Shown in pieces: positions 20,930-61,557 of a DNA stretch of 64,000 nt. Every line of letters starts with the position of its first letter. Within the stretch, counting starts at the first letter, position 1. A program made the translations under genes and the position numbers. Source of the DNA: Haliotis rufescens (Eukaryota); contig NW_025964372.1 of assembly GCF_023055435.1 (NCBI RefSeq), positions 35,836,001 through 35,900,000 of the forward strand, read 5' to 3'. The notes under the pieces were generated by a model. The model was not told the origin of the DNA, did no database searches, and saw only the letters and a list, made by a program, of their open reading frames with translations.

Positions 20930-22194
20930 GTACATCAGTCTCTAATGCTTAGCATAGCCTAGTGGTTAAAGTGTTCACTCATTTCGCTGACTGATAGGTT
21001 TGATTCACAACATGGGTGCAATTTGTGGCTAGTTCCTGGTGTCCCTAGCTGGGGTCTTGTGCAGCGGCATTAAACCTTTCTCTCACACACTTGTGTCAGG
21101 CATGCAGTCTGGTTGATGAGATTCTTTGCAGTGTACCCTTCACCTTTAAGCACATGCTCGGAGCTTATTTTTGGGGTGTGGCTGTGTCAGATTCAAACTA
21201 GAATCGCTGGTACTAATTTCAGTCAAGATTTATGTTTCAGTTCCTTGTGGTGCTACGATGAAGATTGAGTATGATGTAATTAATTATGACAGATTACTTG
21301 TGCAGATGTGGTTATTGGCCGGACATTTCTCCATATTGCAAAAAATATTCCTGATTCTGATACAGTGATGAGCTTTTTGTTGAATAATGTTGCCAAGTGA
21401 CGGACATGTGTTCAGTACTCCCAGAAACAAACCAGTTGAGAAAGCTTAATATATGGTTAAAGTTTAAGTCCCTGTTTTGAAAAGTGAAATAAACTAAAGA
21501 TATTTTTGTGTTGCTTTAATGTTTCAGAAAGCTTTGATTCTTCCAGGAATATTACTTCAAGTTGAATGCTATCAATGTAGTTGTATCATAGCTGTGAGAT
21601 GTTCAATAAGATTTGTTATAATAGAACAGAAGGGCCCAGTCTTGCTGCGAGTTAGCTTAAATCTTCTAAAATTATGTCAAATTTTCATAATCTTTTGTGT
21701 ATGTGGATATTAGCAATTGTAAGATACATATCTCCTGTTGTAAGAGGATATTAACACATCGCTAAGATACATAATAAAAGTCAAGTGATGTACAGTTTTG
21801 CAAGAACATTCTCATCAATAAGTTCGATGTCAGTACAGTCATCTGTAATATACAAGGACAATACCCCAGAGTTAGTAGGCAATCTTATTGTGTTGAGGTC
21901 ATTTGGTAAATACATCAGGTTAGTTCTGTTCAAGTCGTGGTCCATGAGCTAAGCGTCGTTGTTCACCGTCAACCATCCATTATTCACCAGTTCAGGGCAT
22001 GTCATGGTCCCACATTGTGAACATCAATGGTTTCACTTCTAGTTTACTGAAGGCATCATCCAACTAATGGCACACTATTTTTCTCCAGAACAATATGAAA
22101 CTGTGAATATATTATGCAAAGGGACATCCTGGTTAAATTTGTCTGTGATTCCTTCTTGGGAAAGGGGGACATAAAAGGGTATGTCCTCATCAAT

Positions 22195-22360
22195 CTTAGT
22201 GAAGATGATCCTCAAGGAGTTGAGAGTGCGAGTATTCTCTTAGTGAAGATACTCCTCAAGGAATTGAGAGTGTGAGTATTCTCTTAGTGAAGATACTCCT
22301 CAAGGAGTTGAGAGTATGAGTATTCTCTTAGTGAAGATACTCCTCAAGGAGTTGAGAGTG
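22195..22360. repeat. 44-bp tandem repeat, about 3.7 copies, ending 30 bp before exon 6
   Basis: cttagtgaagatactcctcaaggagttgagagtgtgagtattct. Confidence 0.9.
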
Positions 22361-22390
22361 TAACATTTTGCCTGTTTTCTCCTCTACAAG

Positions 22391-30227: not shown

Positions 30228-30320
30228 TTCGATGTCTGCGTCCAGTGATTCTGCCATCGATAAAGGGGAGATGGGGTCACAAGAGCTAGGCAGAATCTCA
30301 GAGCTGGAGAAGGACTTGAT
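30228..30320 (+). CDS. TBC1D2B: TBC1D2B-like exon 9 (SMSASSDSAIDKGEMGSQELGRISELEKDL)
   Basis: tttatgatag / gtgagt, 93 nt, phase 2->2, leads into the coiled coil. Confidence 0.8.
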
Positions 30321-30745
30321 GTGAGTATAGCACTGCATGTTCACCTTATGAATAACTAACTCCCACATTGTGGTTTTGTGTGTGGATGGATTTTGGGCAA
30401 AAGGTTGAAGACTGGTGGGTGCTTGTCTCTCTGTAGACTTTGATGTGAGAATAAGGCAGTGAGTTCATCTTATGGATAATGAGCTCCCACATTGTGGTTT
30501 TGTGTGTGGATGGATATAGGGCAAAAGGTTGAAGACTGATGGGTGCTTGTCTCACTGTAGACTTTGATGTGAAAAATAAGGCAGTGAGTTCACCTTATGG
30601 ATAATTAGCTCCCACATTTGGATTTTGTGTATGGATGGATATAGGGCAAAAGGTTGAAGACTGGTGGGTGCTTGTCTCACTGTAGACTTTGATGTGAGAA
30701 TAAGGCAGTCAGTTCACCTTATTCATAATTAGTTCACACATTGTT
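30313..30745. repeat. About 124-bp tandem repeat, about 3.5 copies, containing the exon 9 donor junction; followed by a 41-bp repeat to about 30920
   Basis: gact(t)tgatgtgag recurs at about 30313, 30436, 30560 and 30685. Confidence 0.85.
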
Positions 30746-35070: not shown

Positions 35071-35222
35071 TCCTTTATACAAGGGACACATAATATTTGG
35101 CATAATATCAACATGTTTATAGCAGCCTCCCGTTTGTAAAAACATTTGCCATGAACTCCTCCTCTGTATGTGAATGTTACCTTGCGATGACCTTGGGATG
35201 ACCTTGGGATGCTGTGTTTCAG

Positions 35223-37593: not shown

Positions 37594-38596
37594 GTATTTT
37601 ATAGCAGCTTCATAACAGGCAGGGAAATTGTTTTGGACAGGAGTTGCCTCCCTTAGAATATAGCCTGTTTCCAGCACCTCGCTGATGAATCTAAATATTC
37701 ATAATCATGATCTTTATGAATGGTCATAGTTTTACAGAAACCTTGATTACCCTTCAAAAATTAATAATGATTAGGCTGCACAACATGAATTGAATCACCA
37801 TGTTTGGAAAATGTATCATCCTTATCTAATTTAATGCCACAATAAATTAATTTTTAGACTTTCCAAATTTTTCAAAGATCTTAGGCATCAGCCATTTTTA
37901 TTTTTTTAAACAAAACTGTTCAAGGCATCTGTGTTAATTAACAGTCAATGTTTTTTATTCGCATGAATATTTGGTTGGACTACGATACTGTAATCAAGTA
38001 AAGAATATGGGGACACATGCAGCAATGTACTTTGTCTGTAGGCGCTTGAGGATAATAGAATATTATATCCGGGTCAAGATTTTCAAAATGATCTTATTTA
38101 AGATTCATCAAAAAGGTATGTTGTTTCACACTTCTGTAAGAATAGACTGGGATAGAAATTATTTTCTGTTGACTCGATAGTTAAGAGAATCGCTGTCACT
38201 AGTAACAACATTTCCGACGTGAAATCTTTGATGCGTTCTTTGTGTATAAGAAGGGTCGATTTGAATCACACAGCTTAACAAAATGAAATGTCAATGTTTC
38301 AGCAAATGCAGGTTATTTGTTTAAAAAGTATCTGCAGCAAAGTATGCCACCATCTTGAATTAAATTCAATAAACTTACGACAGGTATGGACCTATCTTAG
38401 ATTTACGACATTCTTGCGATGTCTTAGGGCTACGATAGTTTTGAAAATAGGCTATGACAGTGTATGTTTGCCTTACGATGACTTTACAGTAACCTCAAGG
38501 CTAAGATTGTTATGAAGATCTAGATCCATCAGGGTTCGTAGTTAAGACAAGCATGAATGAAAGTGTAACAACTGATTGATGACAACATATGTGATA

Positions 38597-39771
38597 CGTG
38601 TCCTGCTCCAGTGCGTCAGTGTTGTGTGTGTTGTAGACTGGCGAATCACGACGTCCACGTGTCCTGCTCCAGTGTGTCAGTGTTGTGTGTGTTGTAGACT
38701 GGCGAATCATGACGTCCACGTGTCCTGCTCCAGTGTGTCAGTGTTGTGTGTGTTGTAGACTGGCGAATCATGACGTCCACGTGTCCTGCTCCAGTGCGTC
38801 AGTGTTGTGTGTGTTGTAGACTGGCGAATCATGACGTCCACGTGTCCTGCTCCAGTGTGTCAGTGTTGTGTGTGTTGTAGACTGGCGAATCATGACGTCC
38901 ACGTGGACTGCTCCAGTGTGTCAGTGTTGTGTGTGTTGTAGACTGGCGAATCATGACGTCCACGTGGACTGCTCCAGTGTGTCAGTGTTGTGTGTGTTGT
39001 AGACTGGCGAATCACGACGTCCTGGTGTCCTGCTCCATTGTGTCAGTGTTGTGTGTGTTGTAGACTGGCGAATCACGACGTCCTGGTGTCCTGCTCCATT
39101 GTGTCAGTGTTGTGTGTGTTGTAGACTGGCGAATCACGACATCCTGGTGTCCTGCTCCAGTGTGTCAGTGTTGTGTGTGTTGTAGACTGGCGAATCACGA
39201 CGTCCACGTGTCCTGCTCCAGTGTGTCAGTGTTGTGTGTGTTGTAGACTGGCGAATCATGACGTCCACGTGTCCTGCTCCAGTGTGTCAGTGTTGTGTGT
39301 GTTGTAGACTGGCGAATCACGACGTCCACGTGTCCTGCTCTAGTGTGTCAGTGTTGTGTGTGTTGTAGACTGGCGAATCACGACGTCCACGTGTCCTGCT
39401 CCATTGTGTCAGTGTTGTGTGTGTTGTAGACTGGCGAATCACGACGTCCACGTGTTCGGCTGCAGTGCGTCTGTGTTGTGTGTGTTGTAGACTGGCGAAT
39501 CATGACGTCCACATGTCCTGCTCCAGTGTGTCAGTGTTGTGTGTGTTGTAGACTGGCAAATCACGACGTCCACGTGTCCTGCTCCAGTGTGTCAGTGTTG
39601 TGTGTGTTGTAGACTGGCGAATCATGACGTCCACGTGGACTGCTCCAGTGTGTCAGTGTTGTGTGTGTTGTAGACTGGCGAATCATGACGTCCACGTGTC
39701 CTGCTCTAGTGTGTCAGTGTTGTGTGTGTTGTAGACTGGCGAATCACGACGTTCTGTTGTGTGTGTTGTAG
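38597..39771. repeat. 61-bp minisatellite, about 19 copies, built from the exon 14 acceptor and exon start
   Basis: Unit gtgtcctgctccagtgtgtcagtgttgtgtgtgttgtag|actggcgaatcaygacgtccac. Confidence 0.95.
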
Positions 39772-39961
39772 GCTGGCGAATCACGACGTCCACGTGGACT
39801 GCTATGGGTTCAAGCACCAGTTTGATGACCCCGGCCTGCTGCTCCACTACCTGTGTCAGGAGCTGAGCGTCCACTACCTGACTCAGGCCGGCGCCTACGA
39901 GGAACATCAGCGTCGGTGGAACAACTACCTCAGGCAGCACGCCAAGAACATCGTCAAAAAT
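39772..39961 (+). CDS. TBC1D2B: TBC1D2B-like exon 14 (LANHDVHVDCYGFKHQF...RRWNNYLRQHAKNIVKN)
   Basis: gtgttgtag / gtaagc. DxYGF motif and WxxYL helix typical just upstream of TBC domains. Phase 2->0. Confidence 0.92.
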
Positions 39962-40479: not shown

Positions 40480-40885
40480 GTATTGTCCATGATGTGAATG
40501 TATTGTCCGTGATGTGGATGTATTGTCTGTGATGTGGATGTATTGTCTATGATGTGGATGTATTGTCCGTGATGTGGATGTATTGTCTATGATGTGGATG
40601 TATTGTCCGTGATGTGGATGTATTGTCCGTGATGTGGATGTATTGTCTATGATGTGGATGTATTGTCCGTGATGTGGATGTATTGTCCGTGATGTGGATG
40701 TATTGTCTATGATGTGGATGTATTGTCTGTGATGTGGATGTATTGTCTATGATGTGGATGTATTGTCTGTGATGTGGATGTATTGTCTGTGATGTGGATG
40801 TATTGTCTATGATGTGGATGTATTGTCCGTGATGTGGATGTATTGTCTGTGATGTGGATGTATTGTCTATGATGTGAATGTATTT
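40480..40885. repeat. 20-bp minisatellite, about 20 copies, running into the exon 15 pyrimidine tract
   Basis: (gatgtggatgtattgtcyrt)n. Confidence 0.95.
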
Positions 40886-40897
40886 TGTGTTTTGCAG

Positions 40898-41053
40898 AAG
40901 AAGGGTTTGAAGCATCTGTGTCGTGGCGGAATTCCGGACCAGTTTCGGAAACAGGTGTGGCGGCAGCTAGTCCACGACCAAGTTCAGGATGTCATCACAG
41001 AGAAGGGTCCGCACTACTTCCGCAATCTCTGCAACCTTGTTCCGGACTCACCG
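40898..41053 (+). CDS. TBC1D2B: TBC1D2B-like exon 15 (KKGLKHLCRGGIPDQFRKQVWRQL..., TBC domain start)
   Basis: ttttgcag / G|GTAGGC. GIPxxxRxxVW is TBC motif A. Confidence 0.95.
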
Positions 41054-44000
41054 GTAGGCTACAGCATCAGTAATCTGTGGGGTGTTCAAGTCTTGCCTGA
41101 ATACAGGATCCGTAATCTGAGTGTGTTCAAGTCTTGGTTGGCTACAGGATCGGTAATCTGTGGGGTGTTCAAGTCTGGCCTGAATACAGGATCTGTAATC
41201 TGAGTGTGTTCAAGTCTTGGTTGGCTACAGGATCGGTAATCTGTGGGTGTTCAAGTCTTGGTAGGCTACAGGATCAGTAATCTATAGGGTGTTCAAGTCT
41301 TGGTAGTCTACAGGATCTGTAATCTGAGGGTGTTCAAGTCTTGGTAAGCTACAGGATCAGTAATCTGTAGGGTGTTCAAGTCTTGGTAGGTTACAGGATC
41401 AGTAATCTGAGGGTTTTCAAGTCTTGGTTAGCTACAGGATCAGTAATCTGAGGGTTTTCAAGTCTTGGTTAGCTACAGGGTCAGTAATCTGTAGGGTGTT
41501 CAAGTCTTGGTTGGCTACAGGATCAGTAATCTGAGGGTGTTCAAGTCTTGGTAGGCTACAGGGTCAGTAATCTGTAGGGTTTTCAAGTCTTGGTAGTCTA
41601 CAGGATCGGTAATCTTTGGGTGTTCAAGTCTTGGTAGGCTACAGGATCAGTAATCTGTAGGGTGTTCAAGTCTTGGTAGTCTACAGGATCAGTAATCTGT
41701 AGGGTGTTCAAGTCTTGGTAGTCTACAGGATCTGTAATCTGTAGGGTGTTCAAGTCTTGGTAGTCTACAGGATCTGTAATCTGAGGGTGTTCAAGTCTTG
41801 GTAGGCTACAGGATCAGTAATCTGTAGGGTGTTCAAGTCTTGGTAGTCTACAGGATCTGTAATCTGTAGGGTGTTCAAGTCTTGGTAGGCTACAGGATCA
41901 GTAATCTGTAGGGTGTTCAAGTCTTGGTAGTCTACAGGATCTGTAATCTGTAGGGTGTTCAAGTCTTGGTAGTCTACAGGATCTGTAATCTGAGGGTGTT
42001 CAAGTCTTGGTAGGCTACAGGATCAGTAATCTGTAGGGTGTTCAAGTCTTGGTAGTCTACAGGATCTGTAATCTGTAGGGTGTTCAAGTCTTGGTAGGCT
42101 ACAGGATCAGTAATCTGTAGGGTGTTCAAGTCTTGGTAGTCTACAGGATCTGTAATCTGAGGGTGTTCAAGTCTTGGTAAGCTACAGGATCAGTTATCTG
42201 TAGGGTGTTCAAGTCTTGGTAGGCTACAGGATCTGTAATCTGTAGGGTGTTCAAGTCTTGGTAGGCTACAGGATCTGTAATCTGTAGGGTGTTCAAGTCT
42301 TGGTAAGCTACAGGATCTGTAATCTGTAGGGTGTTCAAGTCTTGGTAGGCTACAGGATCTGTAATCTGAGGGTGTTCAAGTCTTGGTAAGCTACAGGATC
42401 AGTAATCTGTAGGGAGTTCAAGTCTTGGTAGGCTACAGGATCTGTAATCTGAGGGTGTTCAAGTCTTGGTAGGCTGCAGCATCAGTAATCTGTAGGGTGT
42501 TCAAGTCTTGCCTGAATACAGGATCAGTAATCTGAGGGTGTTCAAGTCTTGGTTAGCTACAGGATCAGTAATCTGTAGGGTGTTCAAGTCTTGGTAGGCT
42601 ACAGGGTCAGTAATCTGTAGGGTGTTCAAGTCTTGGTTGGCTACAGGATCAGTAATCTGAGGGTGTTCAAGTCTTGGTTAGCTACAGGGTCAGTAATCTG
42701 AGGGTGTTCAAGTCTTGGTAGGCTACAGGATCTGTAATCTGAGGGTGTTCAAGTCTTGGTAGGCTACAGGGTCAGTAATCTGAGGGTTTTCAAGTCTTGG
42801 TAGGCTACAGGATCAGTAATCTGTAGGGTGTTCAAGTCTTGGTTAGCTACAGGATCAGTAATCTGAGGGTGTTCAAGTCTTGGTAGGCTACAGGGTCAGT
42901 AATCTGTAGGGTGTTCAAGTCTTGGTAGGTTACAGGATCAGTAATCTGAGGGTTTTCAAGTCTTGGTTAGCTACAGGGTCAGTAATCTGTAGGGTGTTCA
43001 AGTCTTGGTAGGCTACAGGATCAGTAATCTGAGGGTGTTCAAGTCTTGGTAGGCTACAGGATCAGTAATCTGTAGGGTTTTCAAGTCTTGGTTGGCTACA
43101 GGATCAGTAATCTGAGGGTCTTCAAGTCTTGGTTAGCTACAGGGTCAGTAATCTGAGGGTTTTCAAGTCTTGGTTGGCTACAGGATCAGTAATCTGAGGG
43201 TGTTCAAGTCTTGGTAGGTTACAGGATCAGTAATCTGTAGGGTTTTCAAGTCTTGGTTGGCTACAGGATCAGTAATCTGAGGGTGTTCAAGTCTTGGTAA
43301 GCTACAGGATCAGTAATCTGTAGGGTGTTCAAGTCTTGGTAGGCTACAGGATCAGTAATCTGAGGGTGTTCAAGTCTTAGTAGGCTACAGGATCAGTAAT
43401 CTGAGGGTTTTCAAGTCTTGGTTAGCTACAGGATCAGTAATCTGTAGGGTGTTCAAGTCTTGGTAGGCTACAGGGTCAGTAATCTGTAGGGTGTTCAAGT
43501 CTTGGTTGGCTACAGGATCAGTAATCTGTAGGGTGTTCAAGTCTTGGTTAGCTACAGGGTCAGTAATCTGAGGGTGTTCAAGTCTTGGTAGGCTACAGGA
43601 TCTGTAATCTGAGGGTGTTCAAGTCTTGGTAGGCTACAGGATCTGTAATCTGTAGGGTGTTCAAGTCTTGGTAGGCTACAGGGTCAGTAATCTGAGGGTG
43701 TTCAAGTCTTGGTAAGCTACAGGATCAGTAATCTGTAGGGTGTTCAAGTCTTGGTAGGCTACAGGATCTGTAATCTGTAGGGTGTTCAAGTCTTGGTAGT
43801 CTACAGGATCTGTAATCTGTAGGGTGTTCAAGTCTTGGTAAGCTACAGGATCAGTAATCTGTAGGGTGTTCAAGTCTTAGTAGGCTACAGGATCAGTAAT
43901 CTGAGGGTGTTCAAGTCTTAGTAGGCTACAGGATCAGTAATCTGAGGGTTTTCAAGTCTTGGTTAGCTACAGGATCAGTAATCTGTAGGGTGTTCAAGTC

Positions 44001-45875
44001 TTGGTAGGCTACAGGGTCAGTAATCTGTAGGGTGTTCAAGTCTTGGTTGGCTACATGATCAGTAATCTGTAGGGTGTTCAAGTCTTGGTTAGCTACAGGG
44101 TCAGTAATCTGAGGGTGTTCAAGTCTTGGTAGGCTACAGGATCTGTAATCTGAGGGTGTTCAAGTCTTGGTAGGCTACAGGATCTGTAATCTGTAGGGTG
44201 TTCAAGTCTTGGTAGGCTACAGGGTCAGTAATCTGAGGGTGTTCAAGTCTTGGTAAGCTACAGGATCTGTAATCTGTAGGGTGTTCAAGTCTTGGTAGGC
44301 TACAGGATCTGTAATCTGTAGGGTGTTCAAGTCTTGGTAGTCTACAGGATCTGTAATCTGTAGGGTGTTCAAGTCTTGGTAAGCTACAGGATCAGTAATC
44401 TGTAGGGTGTTCAAGTCTTGGTAAGCTACAGGATCAGTAATCTGTAGGGAGTTCAAGTCTTGGTAAGCTACAGGATCAGTAATCTGTAGGGTGTTCAAGT
44501 CTTGGTAAGCTACAGGATCAGTAATCTGTAGGGAGTTCAAGTCTTGGTAGGCTACAGGATCAGTAATCTGAGGGTGTTCAAGTCTTGGTAGGCTGCAGCA
44601 TCAGTAATCTGTAGGGTGTTCAAGTCTTGCCTGAATACAGGATCTGTAATCTGAGGGTTTTCAAGTCTTGGTTAGCTACAGGATCAGTAATCTGTAGGGT
44701 GTTCAAGTCTTGGTAGGCTACAGGGTCAGTAATCTGTAGGGTGTTCATGTCTTGGTTAGCTACAGGGTCAGTAATCTGAGGGTGTTCAAGTCTTGGTAGG
44801 CTACAGGATCTGTAATCTGAGGGTGTTCAAGTCTTGGTTAGCTACAGGGTCAGTAATCTGAGGGTGTTCAAGTCTTGGTAGGCTACAGGATCAGTAATCT
44901 GTAGGGTGTTCAAGTCTTGGTTAGCTACAGGATCAGTAATCTGAGGGTGTTCAAGTCTTGGTAGGCTACAGGGTCAGTAATCTGTAGGGTGTTCAAGTCT
45001 TGGTAGGTTACAGGATCAGTAATCTGAGGGTTTTCAAGTCTTGGTTAGCTACAGGGTCAATAATCTGTAGGGTGTTCAAGTCTTGGTTGGCTACAGGATC
45101 TGTAATCTGAGGGTGTTCAAGTCTTGGTTAGCTACAGGATCAGTAATCTGAGGGTGTTCAAGTCTTGGTAGGCTACAGGGTCAGTAATCTGTAGGGTGTT
45201 CAAGTCTTGGTAGGTTACAGGATCAGTAATCTGAGGGTTTTCAAGTCTTGGTTAGCTACAGGGTCAGTAATCTGAGGGTGTTCAAGTCTTGGTCTGCTAC
45301 AGGATCAGTAATCTGAGGGTTTTCAAGCCTTGGTAGGTTACAGGATCAGTAATCTGTAGGGTTTTCAAGTCTTGGTAGGCTACAGGATCAGTAATCTGAG
45401 GGTGTTCAAGTCTTGGTAAGCTACAGGATCAGTAATCTGTAGGGTGTTCAAGTCTTGGTAGGCTACAGGATCAGTAATCTGAGGGTGTTCAAGTCTTAGT
45501 AGGCTACAGGATCTGTAATCTGAGGGTTTTCAAGTCTTGGTTAGCTACAGGATCAGTAATCTGTAGGGTGTTCAAGTCTTGGTAGGCTACAGGGTCAGTA
45601 ATCTGTAGGGTGTTCAAGTCTTGGTTGGCTACAGGATCAGTAATCTGTAGGGTGTTCAAGTCTTGGTTAGCTACAGGGTCAGTAATCTGTAGGGTGTTCA
45701 AGTCTTGGTAGGCTACAGGATCTGTAATCTGTAGGGTGTTCAAGTCTTGGTAGGCTACAGGGTCAGTAATCTGAGGGTGTTCAAGTCTTGGTAGGCTACA
45801 GGATCAGTAATCTGAGGGTTTTCAAGTCTTGGTATCCTGCAGGATCAGTAATCTATAGGGCGCTCAAGCCTTGGT
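41054..45875. repeat. 41/42-bp minisatellite, about 115 copies, filling almost all of intron 15
   Basis: ggtaggctacaggatcagtaatctg(t)agggtgttcaagtctt; first unit begins at the donor GT. Confidence 0.97.
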
Positions 45876-46034
45876 TGGCGGATTAACTAGGCCATAGAAA
45901 TAGGTGCTTGTTTCAGAAATCATGGAAAGTCTGCCATAATGTGTAATAATTCATCTTTGATTGATCCATGTTGTGAGTGTACATAGATGTGTTTCAAGAA
46001 GGTAGTGAGAGTTTGTGTACTTGTTCTTCCTCAG

Positions 46035-46124: not shown

Positions 46125-46475
46125 GTGAGTTGTCATGGTGACCACAGACAGACACACAGACAGACACACAGACAACAACTGTTAAGTACAGGATCATTAA
46201 TGTCCTAACCTGCACACATAGGTGTTATGGAAGCTGGTATGGTTATTCAAAGTATCAGAAGTTCATGCATGTATGGTTCAATCCAGCCAATGTATGAAAG
46301 AGTTAGTTAGAGACTCCCAGGATTATGAAAATCACACCTATATACAGATTACAGAATAGTTAGTCTGATGTTTAGTCAAGTGATACATGTGCAAGGAATT
46401 AAAGAAGTGATGTGGTTGTTGAGATTGTGTAAAGTATACTGCTGGTGTGTAGACGCGTGTGACCTTCACCTTCAG

Positions 46476-46600
46476 ATCATGGACATGCAGGACATCCTCC
46501 TGGCCTTCTGCATCCACAGCCCCTCCATCGGATACTGCCAGGGCATGAACTTCATTGTTGGCATGGCGCTGCTCTTCATGGATGCACAGGATGCTTTCTG
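46476..46600 (+). CDS. TBC1D2B: TBC1D2B-like exon 17 (IMDMQDILLAFCIHSPSIGYCQGMNF...DAFW, Gln finger)
   Basis: caccttcag / gtcagt. YxQ motif (GYCQGMN). Phase 0->2. Confidence 0.95.
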
Positions 46601-46947
46601 GTCAGTTTAACCCTACTCTGGAAATATCTTTGATAGGCCCCATGAAGATCCTGTTAAGAATTGGTCTACAGCAACTGTAGGAGGCAACTAACAGGATCTG
46701 GTTGCGCAGATCGATGCTCATGATGTCAATCACTGGATTTTCTGGCCCTGACTTGATTACTAACAGACAGACGTCAAATAGCTGGAATATTGCTAAGTGT
46801 GTCTTTAAACAACAAACAAATATCTTGTTAGTAGGAAGTTGACAAAATTTGATTTCAAGAAAAACGAAGATTATAGAATAATATGGAAGTTATTTCTGCT
46901 GGGAACTTGGGCCATGTTCCACCTCGCTATCTACTTCAAGGCTGTAA

Positions 46948-47230
46948 TGAGTGAGTGAGTGAGTTGGGTTTAACGCCGCTTTTGACATTATTCCAGTTTT
47001 ATCACGGCGTGTCAGCTTAATGTGGGAGGAAAGCCCGAAGTGATGCAGGTATCACACGTTTACCACTTCGGTGAAACCCACGAGAATGGGTATGGTGCTG
47101 ACAAACCTAGAAACATAATTAGGGCGAACCAGGATTCGAACCCACAATCTTAGGTTTCTGGCATGCCCAAGGGACGCAACTCTGCACAGCGAATCGCGGC
47201 GCCTTAGACGACTGGGCCACCCGTGCCCCC
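46948..47230 (-). mobile_element. tRNA-derived SINE family B, full length (tRNA-Leu-like head)
   Basis: ggtggcccagtcgtctaaggcgc...gtgggttcgaatcc, (ACTC)n tail, TSD ggct(g/a)taatga. Confidence 0.9.
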
Positions 47231-48211
47231 TATGGCTATAATGACTTCCACACTTTTTGTTTCGTGTATTTTAATCCAAGACCTTGTCACTCTTTGGATC
47301 TGAGCACTGAGGTTGTAAACTCCATTTTTTAGTCATTTTAGTATAATACGGGTACTTGGTTTACATATCCACAGCCCCTAAAATCAGGAATGTAGCGGAA
47401 AGTTCATTTCTGCTTTTTTTGTTACCACCAAAATGACAAATAATTACACTTACAAAAAAATTAATTCACAAATATTTAGCCCTGTCTGATTCCGACATAT
47501 GTTGCATGCTCCAGGATGTGTAAACGTTCACTCACACTGTAAATCATAGCTACAACAAATACTTTAACTCCAAGCAGTGTGTGGCTTGTTCTCATTTAAA
47601 CACTATAAATCTTTACATATATTCACATTTCACAAAAATGCGAAACAAAAAGAATAATTCAAGTTGTATTGGTCATCCTACCGACCTTTTATATCTACAG
47701 AAAAAGGGTAGAATATTATTTCTATTTTAATTTCGACCAGCAAGCCAAGATATGAGACAAAAATTCTGTAAACAAGCTAATACCGTATTCGACGATCTTT
47801 TAACTGTGTTTTTTTTCTTACCAAAATTATATTCTAATAAGAGCCCCCTATTTCTAATTTTTAGAGCGCCCTAGGCGCTTATTGCGTCAAATACGGTAAT
47901 AAAAAGTCAGCACAAACAAAGAAAAATACTTGAGAGAGCTGTTCTGGTGTCACCTGTTTTCCACTAAAGGACATAAATGGAGGGATAGGTCAGAGGAATA
48001 GCCTCACAGTTATACAATATGTTCCCCTCCCAACTTTCTCTGTGGTCTGGTTGATACAGCCTCTGTCCTGATAGTGGAGGGCCGGTGGCTCGTTCCTTGG
48101 ATGTGTCTAGTACAAGCAGCCACACACAGACACTTGCATGCATGTCGCTATTGTAAGTGTGACAATCTTGAACATGACCATGTTAAACCCCTTTTCACCT
48201 CACCCTGTCTC

Positions 48212-48610
48212 ACCCCCACCCACACATTGCTGCAGTGCACTAACCCCCTGTGACTGTGTACAGGACCCTGGTGGCCATCACAGAGAGTTACTTTACGCCC
48301 CCCTAACCACCCCCACCCCCACCCACACATTCCTGCAATGCACTAACTCCCTGTGACTGATACAGGACCCTGGCTTGCCATCACAGAGAGTTACTTTACG
48401 CCCCCCTAACCACCCCCACCCCCACCCACACATTGCTGCAGTGCACTAACCCCCTGTGACTGATACAGGACCCTGGTGGCCATCACAGAGAGTTACTTTA
48501 CACCCCCCTAACCACCCCCACCCCACCCACACATTGCTGCAGTGCACTAACCCCCTGTGACTGTGTACAGGACCCTGGTGGCCATCACGGAGAGGTACTT
48601 CACCCCCAGC
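48212..48610. repeat. About 102-bp tandem repeat, 4 copies; the last copy is the real exon 18 acceptor and start
   Basis: cactaaccccctgtgactg(tg/a)tacag|gaccctggtggccatcac with AG at 48263, 48365, 48468 and 48570. Confidence 0.95.
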
Positions 48611-48781
48611 TACTTCGACCACAACCTGGTGGGTGCCCAGGCTGACCAGCTGGTCCTGAAAGACCTCATCAAGGAGAAGCTGCCCACGCTCTCCAGCCAC
48701 CTGATGGACATTGACATCGAGGTGTCCACCGTCACCCTCAACTGGTTCCTAGCTATCTTCTTTGATGCAGTTCCATTCCAG
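48571..48781 (+). CDS. TBC1D2B: TBC1D2B-like exon 18 (TLVAITERYF...LNWFLAIFFDAVPFQ); gene incomplete at 3' end
   Basis: ctgtgtacag / CAG|GTAAGT. TBC C-subdomain motifs DQxVxxDLxxEKLP and NWFL. The expected next exon (xxxIWD..EG.KV) was not found in the window. Confidence 0.95.
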
Positions 48782-51386
48782 GTAAGTCACTTCATTATCT
48801 TCATATCAGGTCGGGGGGCGGTCGGGAAGCGGTCGGGAAGCCTAGTGGTTAAAGCGTTCACTCGTCGTGGGTTTGATTCCTGACATGGGTACAATGGGTG
48901 AAGCCCATTTCTGGTGTCCCCCTGCTGTGATATTGCTGGAATATTCCTCAAAGCAGCGTAAAACCATACTCACTCACTCACTCACTCACTCACTCACTCA
49001 CTCACTGACACCAGGGCAGGTGGCCCAGTGGGTAAAGTGTTAGCTCATTATTGTCCATACACAACAGTCATTGCAGCCACCATATCCCCTGTAGATGCAA
49101 TTCTACACTAGATTCAGATATATTTGTAGTATGTGTATACCCGTTACACTGTTGTGCAGAGTTGTGCCCCTTAGGCATGTCAGGAGCCTGTATGATAAAG
49201 GGTTCACATCCATGATTTTCCCTTGTTATGATCCAGGGTTGTCGACCGCCTCCGTAGTCTAGTGGTAGAGTGTCCACCCAGAGAGTGGAAGGTCCATGTT
49301 GGTTCATGTTGTTGCCGTTTGAACAATTAGGCCGTACTGTCTGTAGATAACTACAGCAAGACATGCAGGCGGCTGCATGTGTTCTGTCTATTCAATCTCA
49401 TGTACATTTGTGTCTGTGCTTTAAAGACTGGATCAGATTATGTGAGTATGTGAGTGAGTGAGTGAGGGAGGGAGAGAGCAAGTGGCAATTTGAGCGTGAG
49501 TGAGTGAGAGAACGAGTGAGAATTTGAGCGTGTGTGAGTGAGTGGGTGGGTGGGTGGGTGAGTGAGTGAGTGAGCGAGTGAGAATTTGAACGTGAGTGAG
49601 TGAGTGAGTGAGTGCCAGCTTCATGTGGAAGCTAAGTGATGCAGGTCATAGACGGGTACTGACAGACCAAGGATGATAATCAGGGTGAATCTGAGATTCA
49701 AACACCAAACATGTAGATCCTGGCAGGGCAGGAGAGTACCTCCACATCCTGACCCCCTTATACCATTGAATGTATTTTAAGTTTTGACTCTGATTTAAAG
49801 TCTCTGCCTTTAAGCAACAAGTGATACTGATTTGACAATCCCCAAAAACATGTCAAGTAAAAAAGACAAATCTGAAATACACTATTTTATTATATGCCTA
49901 AGGCAAACGTAACTTTTAAACAAATTTTACAAAATGTTAATCTGCTCACTGAGCAAGACTGGTGACACTGGCTTAACAAACATGGCAATATATTCTGCTC
50001 ATGCTATCAACCACCGGTTTGCCAGCACAGTTATGGTCATATACAGGCCACCATGATATACCAGGAACATCTCTACCTCATTCACTCACTCACTCTCTGA
50101 GCGTAACACATATCATGGGACATCATTTAGTCGTACACCCCACCTCGTCCATCACCTTTGTGCTCTAGAAGTCACTGTGATGATCTTACTCACCAATCAC
50201 TCCTGAAGTTAGAGCTTATATCTTGGTTTAGATTTCATTATTGGGATCAACATCCTCAAACCTTGAAGGTTTATCATGCAAGGTCTTTACTGATTGCACT
50301 TAAACCCAGTGCCACACAAACCTCGCCATTGTCCCGTGTAAGACATGATATTGCTGTAACTCACACATCAAATTTATAGCCCTCGGCACTGTAGAACAAT
50401 TGGAGGGGTGCCTCAGGGGCAAGGGGTGACCCACATGGGTAATATTACGGCCCTGGTGTCCCACGGGATGTGTGGTCGTGGACGGACCACCGTTGTAATT
50501 TCTTGTGAGTGACTGCCTCAGTTTCATCGTGGATGTAATCGCGTTGATACTTTAGAGGGAATGTCAAGGGGCTGCCCCGAAACAGTGATAGCTATTGCTA
50601 TTGTTCTGTCCCTAGTCTGTCTTACAGACCCTGATACATTTATATCAACTACAGCCCATGCAAGTCTATAATGTTTGGCAAGTCTAAATTACTGCAGTAT
50701 CTGAAAATAAAGAGAATCACTGGGCTCCCTTTTTATTAGATTTTTTTTAAGATAACTGAACCAACTGTTTTTTTCTGTACGATATGTTCATTTCAGAGAC
50801 TATATGTTAGTCTATTCTGTCCCATTCATGCCACAGATATATTTACCCTTTCAACATTTGCTGTTTATAGCCGCATTCTCTAATGCTGCTACACTTAACT
50901 TTCTCACTTTTTGTAAAATTGTTGTATATGGTTTCTGCTTCAATGGGGTCAATACTTTCACGAATATCTGGGTTTTATTCTCATTTATATTCATTTCATA
51001 TTAACCTGTAAATAGGGTAGAGATTTTTCAAGTTTTAGGGAGGTGAGGGGGGTTTGACTTTAATTTGAGATCTGCCTTTTTTTATCTGTTTAGGAACTCA
51101 ATTATTTTTACCAACACACACATGTGCTAAATTAATATTTTCTTGAAAAAATACTTACTCATACTCATAAAAGCAGTCGTGAATCAAGATTTGACTTCTG
51201 GGTATGTCAATACAACCATCTTTGAGAAAAGGGCACATTATTTTTTTCACTAACATGCAAGGAATATGTCAAGGATGAAGTAAACAAGGGACTTACCTAT
51301 TTAGATGTATTTTGGGAATCTTTTATTATTTCGAATTTAATTTAACAAACTATTCAAGATTCTTGTAATTTACTATAAATGAAGAC

Positions 51387-56053: not shown

Positions 56054-56664
56054 TCATAATCTAGGTTTAATTTTCATTACTGAAGTCTTCATCTGAATCC
56101 AGTCTTGCCAGTCACTGTTGAACCACACAATGCCGGTGTCGTAACGGCCGTTGAGGTTGCTGTATTGGCAATGGCGGTACCACCAGCCCGAGGTGAAGTA
56201 CAGAGCACAGTGGGTGCTGCTCAGGTCATTGTCCTTATCCTGTGTACTGAAGGCCATGTCATTAGAATAGTCCATTCCATCTGTAGCGTTGCCATGGAAA
56301 CCATGAACCCGTAGCTTATAATTTTCCTCTTTTGTTGAAATTGCAAACTCATCATATTCCACAAACCAGTATCCATCGAAGACATCCGTCATTTCGATCC
56401 TGAGAGAATAGTTATCATGCGTTGTCATCAAATGAATGAATTCATTGCCGACCCAGAATTCATCCTCAGCGGAACCAAATCCTATGGCATATTCCGCCCA
56501 AGATCGACTAAAGTTCTCCTTGCCATGCACACGTTTCTGAATCAGTGTCCAACCACCATCGGCCTCCATGCTGCAGTAGACGAACACTGACTGCAGCGCC
56601 CCCTTGGGGTATATGATGTACTTCCCGGAGTCCAGGAACCCACGCTTGTAGTAGCCATCACAAT
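56054..56664 (-). CDS. Fibrinogen C-terminal domain (FReD) terminal exon of the scabrous/angiopoietin-like gene
   Basis: DC...VYCSM..DGGWTLIQKR..G..NF.R.W.EY..GFG....EFWVGNE...FSTQDKDND....HCA....SGWWY..C...NLNG. Acceptor ttgttccag, TGA stop at 56054-56056. Confidence 0.95.
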
Positions 56665-57046
56665 CTGGAACAAATAGTGAAGGGTCATTACTTTCAAAAA
56701 ACAAAATCTTACAAATCGCTCTGTGTGTAAATCTGACAATCAGACTTTCTTGACATATCCTCTGAATATTGAATGTGATGTTAGCCCATAACCTGAATGT
56801 AATGTAGATACATCAGTACTCTGTTTTAACCATTAACCTTTTTTGGAAATGGGTCAGTGGTGGCCCAGTTGTCTAAGCTACTGCAATTGTTGTACAAGTA
56901 TGCACTAGTCATAGGTTGCCCTGATTGTCAGCCTCGATCTGTCATCACCATTGTCCTGGCTCGTGGGTTTCACCAAAGTGTCAAATACAATGTATCTATA
57001 AACTGAGCTGATGAGGCATTTCGCCACATTAAACTGACATATGTTA

Positions 57047-57402: not shown

Positions 57403-57704
57403 AGCTCCAGATACTCAGATATGCTGATACTCAGAATATTTGCAAAACAATTGTGAAATTTTTCAAAATTTCAATAGTACAACAAGACTGTGTGTAATTT
57501 TCCAATGTAAATAACAAACTTATAGCCGGAGCCCTTATTCATTGGCTATGTGAAAACATTTCCACCCATAACCCCTTGCTTCCCCTCACACAAACTCAAA
57601 CCCTAACCCTAATCATTTTTAATTACTTCCAGCCAGGGTTTATGATTCATAAAAATTACGAGTCAGGGGTTGCGGGCAGAAGTTTTATGTCTCTATGTCC
57701 TCAC

Positions 57705-59338
57705 CTGTGGGTACAGTGGTGAGGAGGTTGGTGACCTCCTGCTGCACGAGGCTGATGATGGGCATGTACAGCTGCCATGTTGCTGCCTTCGACCACAGCT
57801 TGTGCAGGAACACTGTGTTGTTCTTGCAGTTACTGTGTACCCGGTACAGAGCCCGGTCAACTCTCTTGATCATCTCACTCAGCAGCAATCCCTGGCTGGT
57901 CATTGCCGACATCTCCTTCTCAAGGGTCAGCAGGCGGCCATCTTGGTACAGGTCCTTGCTGGACTTCTGACACTGGAACAAAGTCTGGTTGAGGACCTTG
58001 CTCTCCAAGTTGGCGATCCTGTTCTCGTTGTAGATGATCTGTAGGGCTAGGTCCTCCACGCGGGACATGACGTCCCCAGATGGTGGTGTGTACCCAGGTT
58101 GTTGATGGGCGGTGGTGGGACTTCCAGACTTGATGCTGCCAAGGTACTCTACATGTTCCCGAAGGTCCTGCACACTGTTGTTGAGGCGGATGATGTGCAT
58201 CCTGAGAACTCGGTACTGCTGGTCACTAAGGAGTCGCTGATCGGTCATCTTCCAGTCCATCTGACCGACTGCCCTGGAGTTGTTGAGGATCATGTTGGTC
58301 ATCTGTGCAATCTGCTGCTGGTTGAACTGGGTGGAGTTGATGATCTGATCGCTGGCCATCTTCCACTGATCCAGGGTGATGACATTCTGGGTGAAGTTGA
58401 TGAGAGACTCCTGCAGCTTCTGCATGAAGTCCCCAAGCTGGATGGACAGAACCCGACTCTCAACCCCATGGATCTTCTCGCCCATACGGACCATCTGCTG
58501 CTCCACGTTCTCAATGTCCGTGTCTCGCTTTAGAATCTCTTGTTCAAAGTAGGAGTCATGTGTCTTCAGAAGGTCCTTTATCCTGGCCTCTAGTTCTTCT
58601 CTGTCTGCGTTGTCAAGCTTGCCCTTGACTTGCTGCTCTAATACTTGAAGTCTGTCTTCCAGATCTACCACATTAACACCATTGACACTTGATGTGTTGA
58701 GTGTGGGAAGGAGAGTGTCAACATCCACACCATCTCCATCTCCACTACCTTCTTCTGCATCTGGAGGACCTGTATTGGGTCTTGACATCCGACTTTCAAA
58801 GCTCATATCCCCCGAGCCGTCACCGGAATCTAGGTCCTCATTGGTCCAAACAAGGGAATCATTTGTTTGATTCAGTTCTAACCTGTTCACATTTCGTCCA
58901 TGCCTTCTCTGATCTTTTACATGAACTTTTAATATTTTAACAACATTGCCATATCTATTTTGAAGTTTTGAAATTGAGTCACTATTTGTTTTTTCCTTTT
59001 TTCGCAAACCCTGCACGTCCTCCATCAAAGAAACATAACTTTGAAACAAATCTTCTTTCACACTCATCAGTTGTGACATATTATGCCGCACTTCAAACAC
59101 ATGATCATCCTCAAATGGCCTTGCATCCTTAACCAAGGTCATCTCGTGTTTGGTTTCGCGCTGTTGAAAGTCTAGTCGTGTAATGTCTAGCTTGATGTTT
59201 GTCGACTGCTCCTCAATGGCTCCAAAGCGCTCCCGAAGCTCCACAATGTGCTGGCGCAGCTGGACCACTTCAGCTTCAGCTTTGATCATCGTGTCGCGGT
59301 ATTGTCTTGTTCGTCTTTCCATTCGACGGAGACGGGTT
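57705..59338 (-). CDS. Scabrous/angiopoietin-like fibrinogen-related protein, large coiled-coil exon (5' exon with signal peptide not located)
   Basis: 556-aa ORF with heptad-like composition. Minus-strand acceptor tgtttacag|A at 59338, donor ACAG|GTGAGG at 57705. Phase 1 joins the next exon as ...VPT-D-CDG. Confidence 0.88.
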
Positions 59339-61557
59339 CTGTAAACATAGACCAAGATTAATCATTCGTTTCACATGGTTGAGTTTCTTTGTGAATAAAC
59401 ATCAGATATGATAAATGTTGTCAACAACATTCTAGTTAGCTATGTCCAACCTCGTTTTCAGGGTTTTTGTGTTAAATCATTAAGCTTTTTTCTTGAAACT
59501 GATTTCAATTGTTTTTCAGGGGTAAATTTGTGGGTTTGATAAATTTCTGCCATAAGCTGACGATTTTGGTATTCATAGATTACCAAGAATATTCCATTAT
59601 TTTCAAATTGCAAATTTTTCATATCAAACAAAGTGGACAATAATAAAGAAGTGGGAGGTTATAAAAGGATATATAGAAGATATTCACCATGGTAATTATG
59701 ACTGATATCTGCCAATAATGAAACCCTTGTACAGTGTTAAAGAAATGAAAGGATCACATCCATGAGTCGATCTATAACAGCGAATCAAATGTAAGATCAT
59801 ATACACAAATATTTATAGAATGAGAAATACTCTGTTCAAGTATGTTGAGGTGAGGTGAAATGAGGCATAACGTCGTTTTCAAGACTATTGCACTTATATG
59901 CGACTCAGATTACGATTTGAATAAAAATACACAAAAACTGAAAGTTTTGCTTTGATTAACAGCCTGAAAGCAATTGTATGACAGATTTGAGCAAGTTTCA
60001 CAATGTTCCTTCACAAAAAAGCCTACAGCTTACTTGAAATGCCCTTTCAGGGGTAACATGATGTGGCAACTCACAAACCTGTCTGATATTTTATATCCAT
60101 TTATTCAATTTTGTGAAGTTACATGTTCAAAGATGTAAGCACTGGGTGAACCTCTCTTTGTCTTGAGGAAAAGGGAACTGAAGTTGGGCATAAATGCATC
60201 ATTATTGAAAAGCACCTGATAATAAACTCCCTCATGGTCATGTTCAAAGGCTTGTATGTCTTTCTGCTCTCTCTCTTTGTTTAGTTATTTCTTTAAATTT
60301 TTCAATATTTTTATGATAATTTTAGGGGCATTGGGTTAGCCTAGTGGTTAAAGCATTTACTGGTCACACCAAAGGACTGGGTTGTATGTGAAGACGGGAG
60401 ACCTCCACCGTGATAGTGCTGCAATATTGTTGAAAGATGTGTAAAACCTCGCTCGTTAGCTTGCTTGCTTGCTTGCTCGCTCGCTCACTCACTCACTCAC
60501 TCACTCGTCCCCACTCGCCTCACTCACTCACTCACTCACTCCTATATTCTTGTCTTAATAACTTCAAGAAATTTGTTTTGTTTTATTAGTACTTGACATA
60601 TTGTCAACCCAATGTTTTTTGACAATGATTAATCACACTTTTTCCCTACTTTTGTGACAGGAAAAACAGACCAATTCTATTTCTCTGTCCTTTCTTCATT
60701 TGAAGAAAATAAAGTCAAGTGTAGCTCTCTGCTCTAGTTTTATACCCTAAGCTTACTGCTGGCTCAGAGACTGTTTATACCAATTATCAATAAATGCCCA
60801 TCAAACATACAGTATTGAAGTCAAGGTCATGACAAGACTACTTCACGAGCCTGAACCTCATATTAATGTTTGGTGAGACTTCTATCTTACTCAGACCCAT
60901 CAGTTGGCATTATCAAGTGGGACATCAGGCTTTGGCAGCTTACGATTTTTGTCATTTTAAATGTTTGAGTTTACACAACATGACAAGCAGTCTGACAAGG
61001 GACATCAGTTACACATCCACCAGTCAGTATAATGGGCATCCATTTTAACATTCCAAATCAGTATTTTATTGGGCAGCTTTTTAATCAATTAATCAACTCC
61101 GAAACCCCTTTCAAAGTGTATTTTATACATGTGTATGTATGCATACAGATCTTAAGGGTGTTGTTTGATGTTCTTCAAAGGGAAGGCTTAAAACACTAAT
61201 GTATTCCTACAGCTATAAATAACGTAATACACAGACCGTTCATCCTAGAATTTCTTAATCAAAGCAATGTTACTCCTACACAAATATTTACTATGTCTGT
61301 ATTCGCCTGCTGAATCATATAATCGATCATGTGTTCATACTCAAGAGTGGCTAACAAATCAGTCTAGCATATCGCACTGATGGGTCATGCCATGTCTTCC
61401 TTGGTAAGACAGTTAATATGGCTGCCTGCTGTACCAGGAGAGATCATATCTCGGCACGAAGATGAACTAAAGAGGTGATTAAACCAATATCCTTGCAGAT
61501 GGATGAGAAAATCTATAATAACGTTCCTACGTCAACTCAAATAATATTTCCCCCAAG

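Follow-up and report, generated by a model that had tools for sequence, protein, structure and literature searches.

The intron before exon 19 of a TBC1D2B-like Rab-GAP gene of the abalone Haliotis rufescens carries, immediately ahead of the authentic acceptor, a tandem array with three complete decoy acceptors. We consider this array very probably a tolerated tandem duplication, a silent acceptor mirage that is most likely neutral; the class to which it belongs, mirages, has already been named. The analysis covered a window of 64,000 nucleotides, that is, the whole stretch of DNA at hand, and the features described below lie on its plus strand unless stated otherwise.

Host Gene and Sequencing Runs

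The best homologue of the host gene was H. rufescens LOC124141828 isoform X3 (100% identity), whose product is a PH + TBC + beta-propeller protein of the TBC1D2B type. In the window the gene has 19 exons with AG/GT ends throughout, the spliced product of which corresponds exactly to the first 775 residues of isoform X3, and, as expected of a TBC1D2/2B-like protein, a PH domain and a RabGAP-TBC domain with both its Arg finger and its Gln finger are present. Exon 18 (46476-46600) carries the YCQ Gln finger and ends at the donor TTCTG/GT at 46600 (here and in other motifs below, a slash marks the cut). The exon behind the array, exon 19 (48571-48781, 211 nt), encodes part of the RabGAP-TBC domain (Pfam match on 48572-48781) and ends at 48781 in the donor CAG/GTAAGT, which matches the U1 consensus at 9/9 positions. 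A first-pass annotation of this DNA had numbered the two array-bearing exons of the gene 18 and 14; under the isoform X3 count, which includes a 42-nt exon, they become 19 and 15. Since no further exon was found within the window after exon 19, the downstream intron must be longer than 15 kb. A probable antisense gene is nested in this intron (56057-56812 and 57688-59361, minus strand), in which a 558-codon open frame lacking a clear match in Pfam precedes a fibrinogen C-terminal domain (E 5e-57).

Four of the 24 listed runs were examined, all of them as assembled contigs, which lose rare forms. X6 and X12 are DNA runs from organism A and organism B, respectively, and X15 (organism A) and X18 (organism B) were treated as RNA, a label that is a guess backed by their exon-only coverage; each organism was represented by one individual. 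Contigs of all four runs were abundant over three high-copy dispersed elements of SINE-like appearance in the intron before exon 19 (46702-46820, 46948-47231 and approximately 47790-47898).

Structure of the Acceptor Array

TRF delimited the array at 48211-48607, with a period of 103, 3.9 copies, 93% matches and a score of 687. The unit of 102-103 bp consists of a C-rich linker, a CACTAAC branch-point-like motif, an AG and the head of the exon, and 3/3 decoys keep both CACTAAC and AG, much as the first-pass annotation had described, except that the exon part measures about 37 nt instead of the 40 nt or so then given. CACTAAC starts at 48238, 48341, 48444 and 48545, and the first exon base after the AG is 48264, 48366 and 48469 in the decoys and 48571 in the real acceptor. 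In decoy 1 (48238-48306) the motif at 48238-48244 and the AG at 48262-48263 are followed by an exon-like head from 48264 with an in-frame TAA at 48304-48306, and decoy 3 (48444-48511) is laid out likewise, with the motif at 48444-48450, the AG at 48467-48468, the head from 48469 and TAA at 48509-48511. Decoy 2 (48341-48459; motif 48341-48347, AG 48364-48365, head from 48366) is the most decayed copy, with a 1-nt insertion in its head, a first stop TGA at 48457-48459, and 4 mismatches and 2 gap columns relative to the real site over 48 intron nt. The authentic motif and AG (48545-48570) occupy 48545-48551 and 48569-48570. The C-rich junction linker at 48290-48336 recurs at 48393-48438 and 48494-48539; each copy is predicted to be G-quadruplex-prone on the minus strand, with a score of about -2.8 from a script of the G4Hunter type, which places it with the strongest of the window's 15 peaks. 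Both borders of the array fall on a 9-bp microhomology, TCACCCCCA, located at 48210-48218 on the left (intron position -54 from decoy 1, next to the TRF border at 48211) and at 48600-48608 on the right (exon +30). In a scan of exon heads at up to 3 mismatches, in which decoys 1 and 3 are detected and decoy 2, owing to its indel, is not, upstream copies were found at only 2/18 acceptors of the gene, those of exon 19 and exon 15, which argues that chance is no explanation for the array.

The earlier observation that the first decoy repeats the real acceptor was confirmed, the two agreeing at every base over 50 intron and 18 exon positions; counted by part, copy 1 differs from the real site at 0/48 intron positions and 4/36 exon positions. 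The changes at +19, +25 and +31 relative to the real exon are common to all three decoys, an altered acceptor end is common to decoys 2 and 3, and decoy 2 has extra private changes. The shared changes in the heads, together with the private ones of decoy 2, fit a single ancient duplication that later expanded and decayed. Within the real exon, at +24/+25, lies a donor-like GAG/GTACTT (48592-48600), the 6/9 U1 matches of which equal the score of several true donors of the host gene; in 3/3 decoys a T replaces the G of this GT at +25, giving GAG/TT.

The same pattern of changes could have been left by leaky, unselected decoys that claim a small noise share of splicing, such that the repeat would be mildly harmful and decoy-weakening changes, namely the GT loss and the decay of copy 2, would be favored. 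The three changes common to the decoys, of which +25 abolishes GAG/GT, point in this direction, as does the excess of exon over intron changes in copy 1; however, four changes are insufficient for a selection test, the exon/intron contrast is accounted for by gene conversion among the intron parts, and the decoy of organism B (X12) retains the exon's G at +19. We rate this explanation as very unlikely.

Use of the Acceptors in RNA and Proteins

Translation across the possible junctions showed that splicing from donor 46600 to decoy 1 or 3 would read W-TLVAITESYFTPP-stop and end at 718 aa, and that splicing to decoy 2 would shift the frame and stop at 735 aa. Both the Arg finger (VSLDLMR) and the Gln finger (YCQ) are encoded upstream of all three decoy stops, and the truncations predicted by the first-pass annotation, in frame to TAA for decoys 1 and 3, frameshifted for decoy 2, and past the catalytic fingers in every case, were thus reproduced. 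By the usual rule, a transcript is an NMD target when its stop precedes a later junction by more than 50 nt, and since the decoy stops lie 270-475 nt upstream of the junction at 48781, decoy products would be expected to be such targets.

In the RNA run X15 a 2699-nt contig with a depth of 69.9, and in X18 a 6137-nt contig with a depth of 12, each included a piece at 48570-48781. The same two depths recur on exon 18 up to 46600 and also on exon 17, and given the matching depths and piece coordinates the 46600-48571 junction is probably present in both runs; the row for this junction was not among the joints listed, in a table dominated by the dispersed intronic repeats. The decoy-specific bases 48281-48282 had a depth of 0 in 2/2 RNA runs (contig coverage, a weak form of evidence), and in X15 the depth was 0 across 48256-48537, though an intronic contig at 47921-48207 was present at a depth of 3.1. 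A depth of 42 at 48256-48349 in X18 was considered as decoy use and rejected, given the depth of 0 at 48281-48282 and in the next two bins; it probably stems from C-rich sequence of other loci. At the protein level, all full-length Haliotis isoforms (13/13, from 3 species) contain FWTLVAITERYF, that is, they use the last acceptor, and they do likewise at exon 15 (the 14th member of the cluster, a fragment without the exon 19 region, was left out of this count). SYFTPP occurred in 0/123 fetched proteins, none of which ends as the decoys predict, and a search using the upstream exon yielded no truncated form among its 27 matches. Folding lent no support to an RNA structure masking the decoys (z = 0.20). 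Together, these data show that the decoys are silent in the dominant form, and low-level or conditional use is compatible with the losses caused by contig assembly and NMD. Exclusive use of 48571 in all conditions, which the first-pass annotation had named as a mark of neutral duplication, was seen in part, namely for the dominant contigs in 2/2 runs.

Two observations speak against silence, namely the full identity of copy 1 with the real acceptor across 50 + 18 nt and the persistence of one decoy in both species. Regulated unproductive splicing, in which conditional use of the decoys would lead to NMD or to a 718-aa protein with PH and half a TBC domain and would thereby tune the Rab-GAP dose, draws on both, as well as on the CACTAAC and AG retained in each decoy, on the placement of all decoy stops past the catalytic fingers, and on the appearance of the same design twice in the gene, at exons 15 and 19. 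Against this, no decoy-containing contig was present in 2/2 RNA runs (weak, as these are contigs), the truncated protein was absent among the 123 proteins and in the upstream-exon search, neither the copy number nor the sequence of the decoys is conserved, and such stops arise from any junction-spanning duplication without selection, so that we judge this explanation very unlikely. Any suggestion of a functional decoy or truncating switch finds no support, given the use of 48571 in the main contig of 2/2 RNA runs and in 13/13 proteins, and the change of copy number in a close relative, which has 1 decoy instead of 3.

Copy Number in Individuals and a Relative

In the DNA run X12 of organism B, a single 802-nt contig covered 47843-48319 and then 48530-48810, which corresponds to one decoy plus the real exon and, compared with the 3 decoys of the window, to a length difference between species. 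This contig has private changes at 48281, 48282 and 48563, and organism B is approximately 2-3% diverged, with 10 differences in 473 nt, 21 in 655 and 11 in 477 in X12. In the DNA run X6 of organism A, contigs end at 48244 and restart at 48565, and decoy-type letters at 48281-48282 have a depth of 27.8 compared to 14.7-20.3 in the flanks, a pattern expected if an array of several copies has collapsed. The proposal that the extra copies are an assembly artefact, absent from the animal, is extremely unlikely, since although no contig examined spans the whole four-copy array, the copies bear private differences, X6 has both these raised decoy-type letters and breaks at both array ends, and the decoy of organism B lies within one contig.

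Because a decoy is present in both organisms and the number differs, the first duplication is likely older than the species split, with the number having changed since. The absence in relatives that the first-pass annotation had associated with neutrality was accordingly found in part: the relative has fewer copies, and its one decoy speaks against full absence. Conservation beyond that of the flanking intron, by which AS-NMD would be recognized, was not seen in this one relative, where copy number differs and the decoy head is changed. A metagenome scan for orthologous introns gave two matches, both GC-rich and unrelated, which were discarded. Exon variants at 46559 and 46583 were found in the RNA run X15 of organism A and in organism B and were absent in the DNA run X6 of organism A; a polymorphism common to both or a hybrid origin are possible alternatives for these.

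Other Boundary Repeats in the Gene

A second, unrelated acceptor mirage precedes exon 15 at 38596-39789, with a 61-bp unit in 19 decoy copies and the real acceptor at 39772; its last unit is shortened to 37 bp, and the real exon begins with G, the decoys with A. The unit of each of the two arrays copies its own junction only, with lengths of 61 bp and 102-103 bp, in support of the independent origin claimed for them at the outset. Elsewhere in the gene, a donor-side mirage at 30316-30741 has a 124-bp unit repeated 3.5 times; it begins 5 nt inside exon 10 and includes donor-like copies at 30444 and 30693. A 42-bp unit present 116 times (41053-45879) extends from the donor of exon 16 and nearly fills the intron; it contains 49 GGTAGG copies, of which 0 match the donor plus 5 exon bases when up to 2 mismatches are allowed. 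Four further arrays (22194-22361, 35179-35211, 40480-40884 and 46143-46174) approach a splice site, with ends 12-30 nt away, and none of them spans it.

To place these arrays in context, 23 TRF arrays with a period of at least 10 were taken from the gene, 4 were dropped (three on 4-nt microsatellites and one exonic) and 2 compound arrays were split, leaving 21. In the null model each array was collapsed to one unit and placed randomly, ignoring base composition, within this one preselected gene. On these terms, 8/21 arrays lay within 30 nt of a splice site, with 1.6 expected (P about 1e-4), and when the two flagged arrays were removed the count was 6/19, with 1.4 expected (P 0.002). For arrays that span a site the counts were 4/21 with 0.95 expected (P 0.012) and, without the two flagged arrays, 2/19 with 0.8 expected (P 0.19, not significant). 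For plants and algae, repeats biased toward the ends of introns have been reported before (PMC3887541).

Comparison With Known Splice-Site Repeats

The mirages of lancelets are described as minisatellite-like tandem duplications of the 3′ end of an intron together with the 5′ portion of the exon that follows (PMC3087553, PMC3902484), in Adh3 and the globins BflGb6 and BflGb9 (PMC3087553) and in troponin C and PGBD5 (PMC3902484). In these reports the AG is kept, the mRNA is normal, several cases occur per gene, and BflGb6 has 6 vs. 3 units; somatic instability has been reported for the Adh3 mirage. The abalone array is likewise a head-to-tail repeat across the intron/exon boundary whose splice signals are kept in 3/3 decoys, and its last, exon-adjacent copy is the one used in the dominant form, by the main contigs of 2/2 RNA runs and by 13/13 proteins; its copy number differs between the window and organism B. 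Unlike the lancelet cases it is found in a mollusc instead of a cephalochordate, and its unit of 102-103 bp compares with 10-72 and 150-160 bp. Our literature search, which was of incomplete coverage, found no mirages in molluscs.

Among human genes, CBS 844ins68 has two duplicated junctions of which the distal acceptor is strongly favored (PMC2630376). There, too, an intron/exon junction is duplicated, two acceptors result and splicing removes the upstream exon fragment, but it is a single 68-bp duplication that is polymorphic in humans, whereas the abalone array has three decoys and a C-rich linker. In the 37-bp VNTR of F7 IVS7, donor pseudo-sites are intact and normally silent, yet competent in minigenes (PMC1557585); the unit again spans a splice site and the exon-proximal site wins, on the donor side in this case, with silence and competence based on minigenes, whereas silence in abalone is read from contigs and proteins. 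A harmful counter-example is the donor duplication of human FGG, which leads to aberrant transcripts (PMC9052919). Finally, in the Rogers model introns are gained by tandem duplication across AG/GT (PMC3087553). The GAG/GTACTT of the exon head could have closed a 24-nt micro-exon and created a new short intron in this way, but with the GT lost in 3/3 abalone decoys no usable GT is left, and neither a new intron nor a new exon results.

Proposed Origin of the Array

Microhomology-mediated slippage is the likely source of the junction tandem duplication, a mirage minisatellite, the 9-bp microhomology at both borders being a signature that suggests slippage or unequal exchange. A duplication between exon +30 and intron -54 would have produced a single decoy before the divergence of organisms A and B, and two more decoys would have been added in the lineage of the window by unequal exchange or slippage. 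The G-rich minus strand of the linker perhaps helped this expansion, although its role in instability is a guess. Exon definition would then favor 48571, the acceptor closest to the donor at 48781, and the spare acceptors would leave with the intron. The exon measured from 48571 is 211 nt long; from the decoys it would be 313, 416 and 518 nt, all of which exceed the longest other internal exon of the gene in the window (295 nt). Given the 211-nt exon, its perfect donor and the long flanking introns, exon definition is likely the rule here. The decoys, having lost the internal GT, would be unable to close the 24-nt in-frame micro-exon, and any decoy product that leaked would fall to NMD. We infer the exon definition and NMD steps from these lengths, signals and stops, and an origin of this kind would need no function for the array.

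Boundary Duplications in Other Gastropods

Exact internal repeats of at least 9 aa were present in 5/123 proteins, and 3 of these begin or end at an orthologous exon junction (two were unmapped). In the predicted protein P0005 of Nucella the head of the exon 19 orthologue is present twice, in P0047 of Batillaria the head of exon 18 occurs three times and is absent from P0048, and in P0013 of Elysia the tail of exon 11 is duplicated. Boundary-anchored duplications were hence seen in the predicted proteins of 3/11 non-Haliotis gastropod species, and they are probably mirages that were absorbed by gene predictors. Their recurrence at varying exons suggests that a general mutational product would fit better than a site-specific switch. 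A wider reading is that a mutational process in gastropods aims tandem duplication at exon-intron boundaries, for example through coupling to transcription, splicing or exon-focused recombination, which would make mirages animal-wide, mechanistically driven and a source of introns or micro-exons. The argument for it is that under purifying selection alone repeats should be scarce at splice sites, whereas 8/21 arrays (6/19 without the two flagged ones) lay within 30 nt of one, and that the predicted orthologues of whelk, Batillaria and Elysia have duplications anchored at exon junctions; we put it forward as a tentative idea that we rather doubt.

Taken alone, this locus is of little weight, being a tolerated repeat. 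It does provide a natural test of 3′ splice-site choice, in that an acceptor identical over 68 nt and situated 307 nt upstream is skipped, an indication of exon definition in a mollusc. It is, in addition, apt to mislead gene predictors, to judge from the duplicated exon heads in the models of whelk and Batillaria. Should this concentration of repeats near splice sites extend to the whole genome, a connection through mutation between duplication and exon boundaries would be indicated, with a bearing on the origin of introns.
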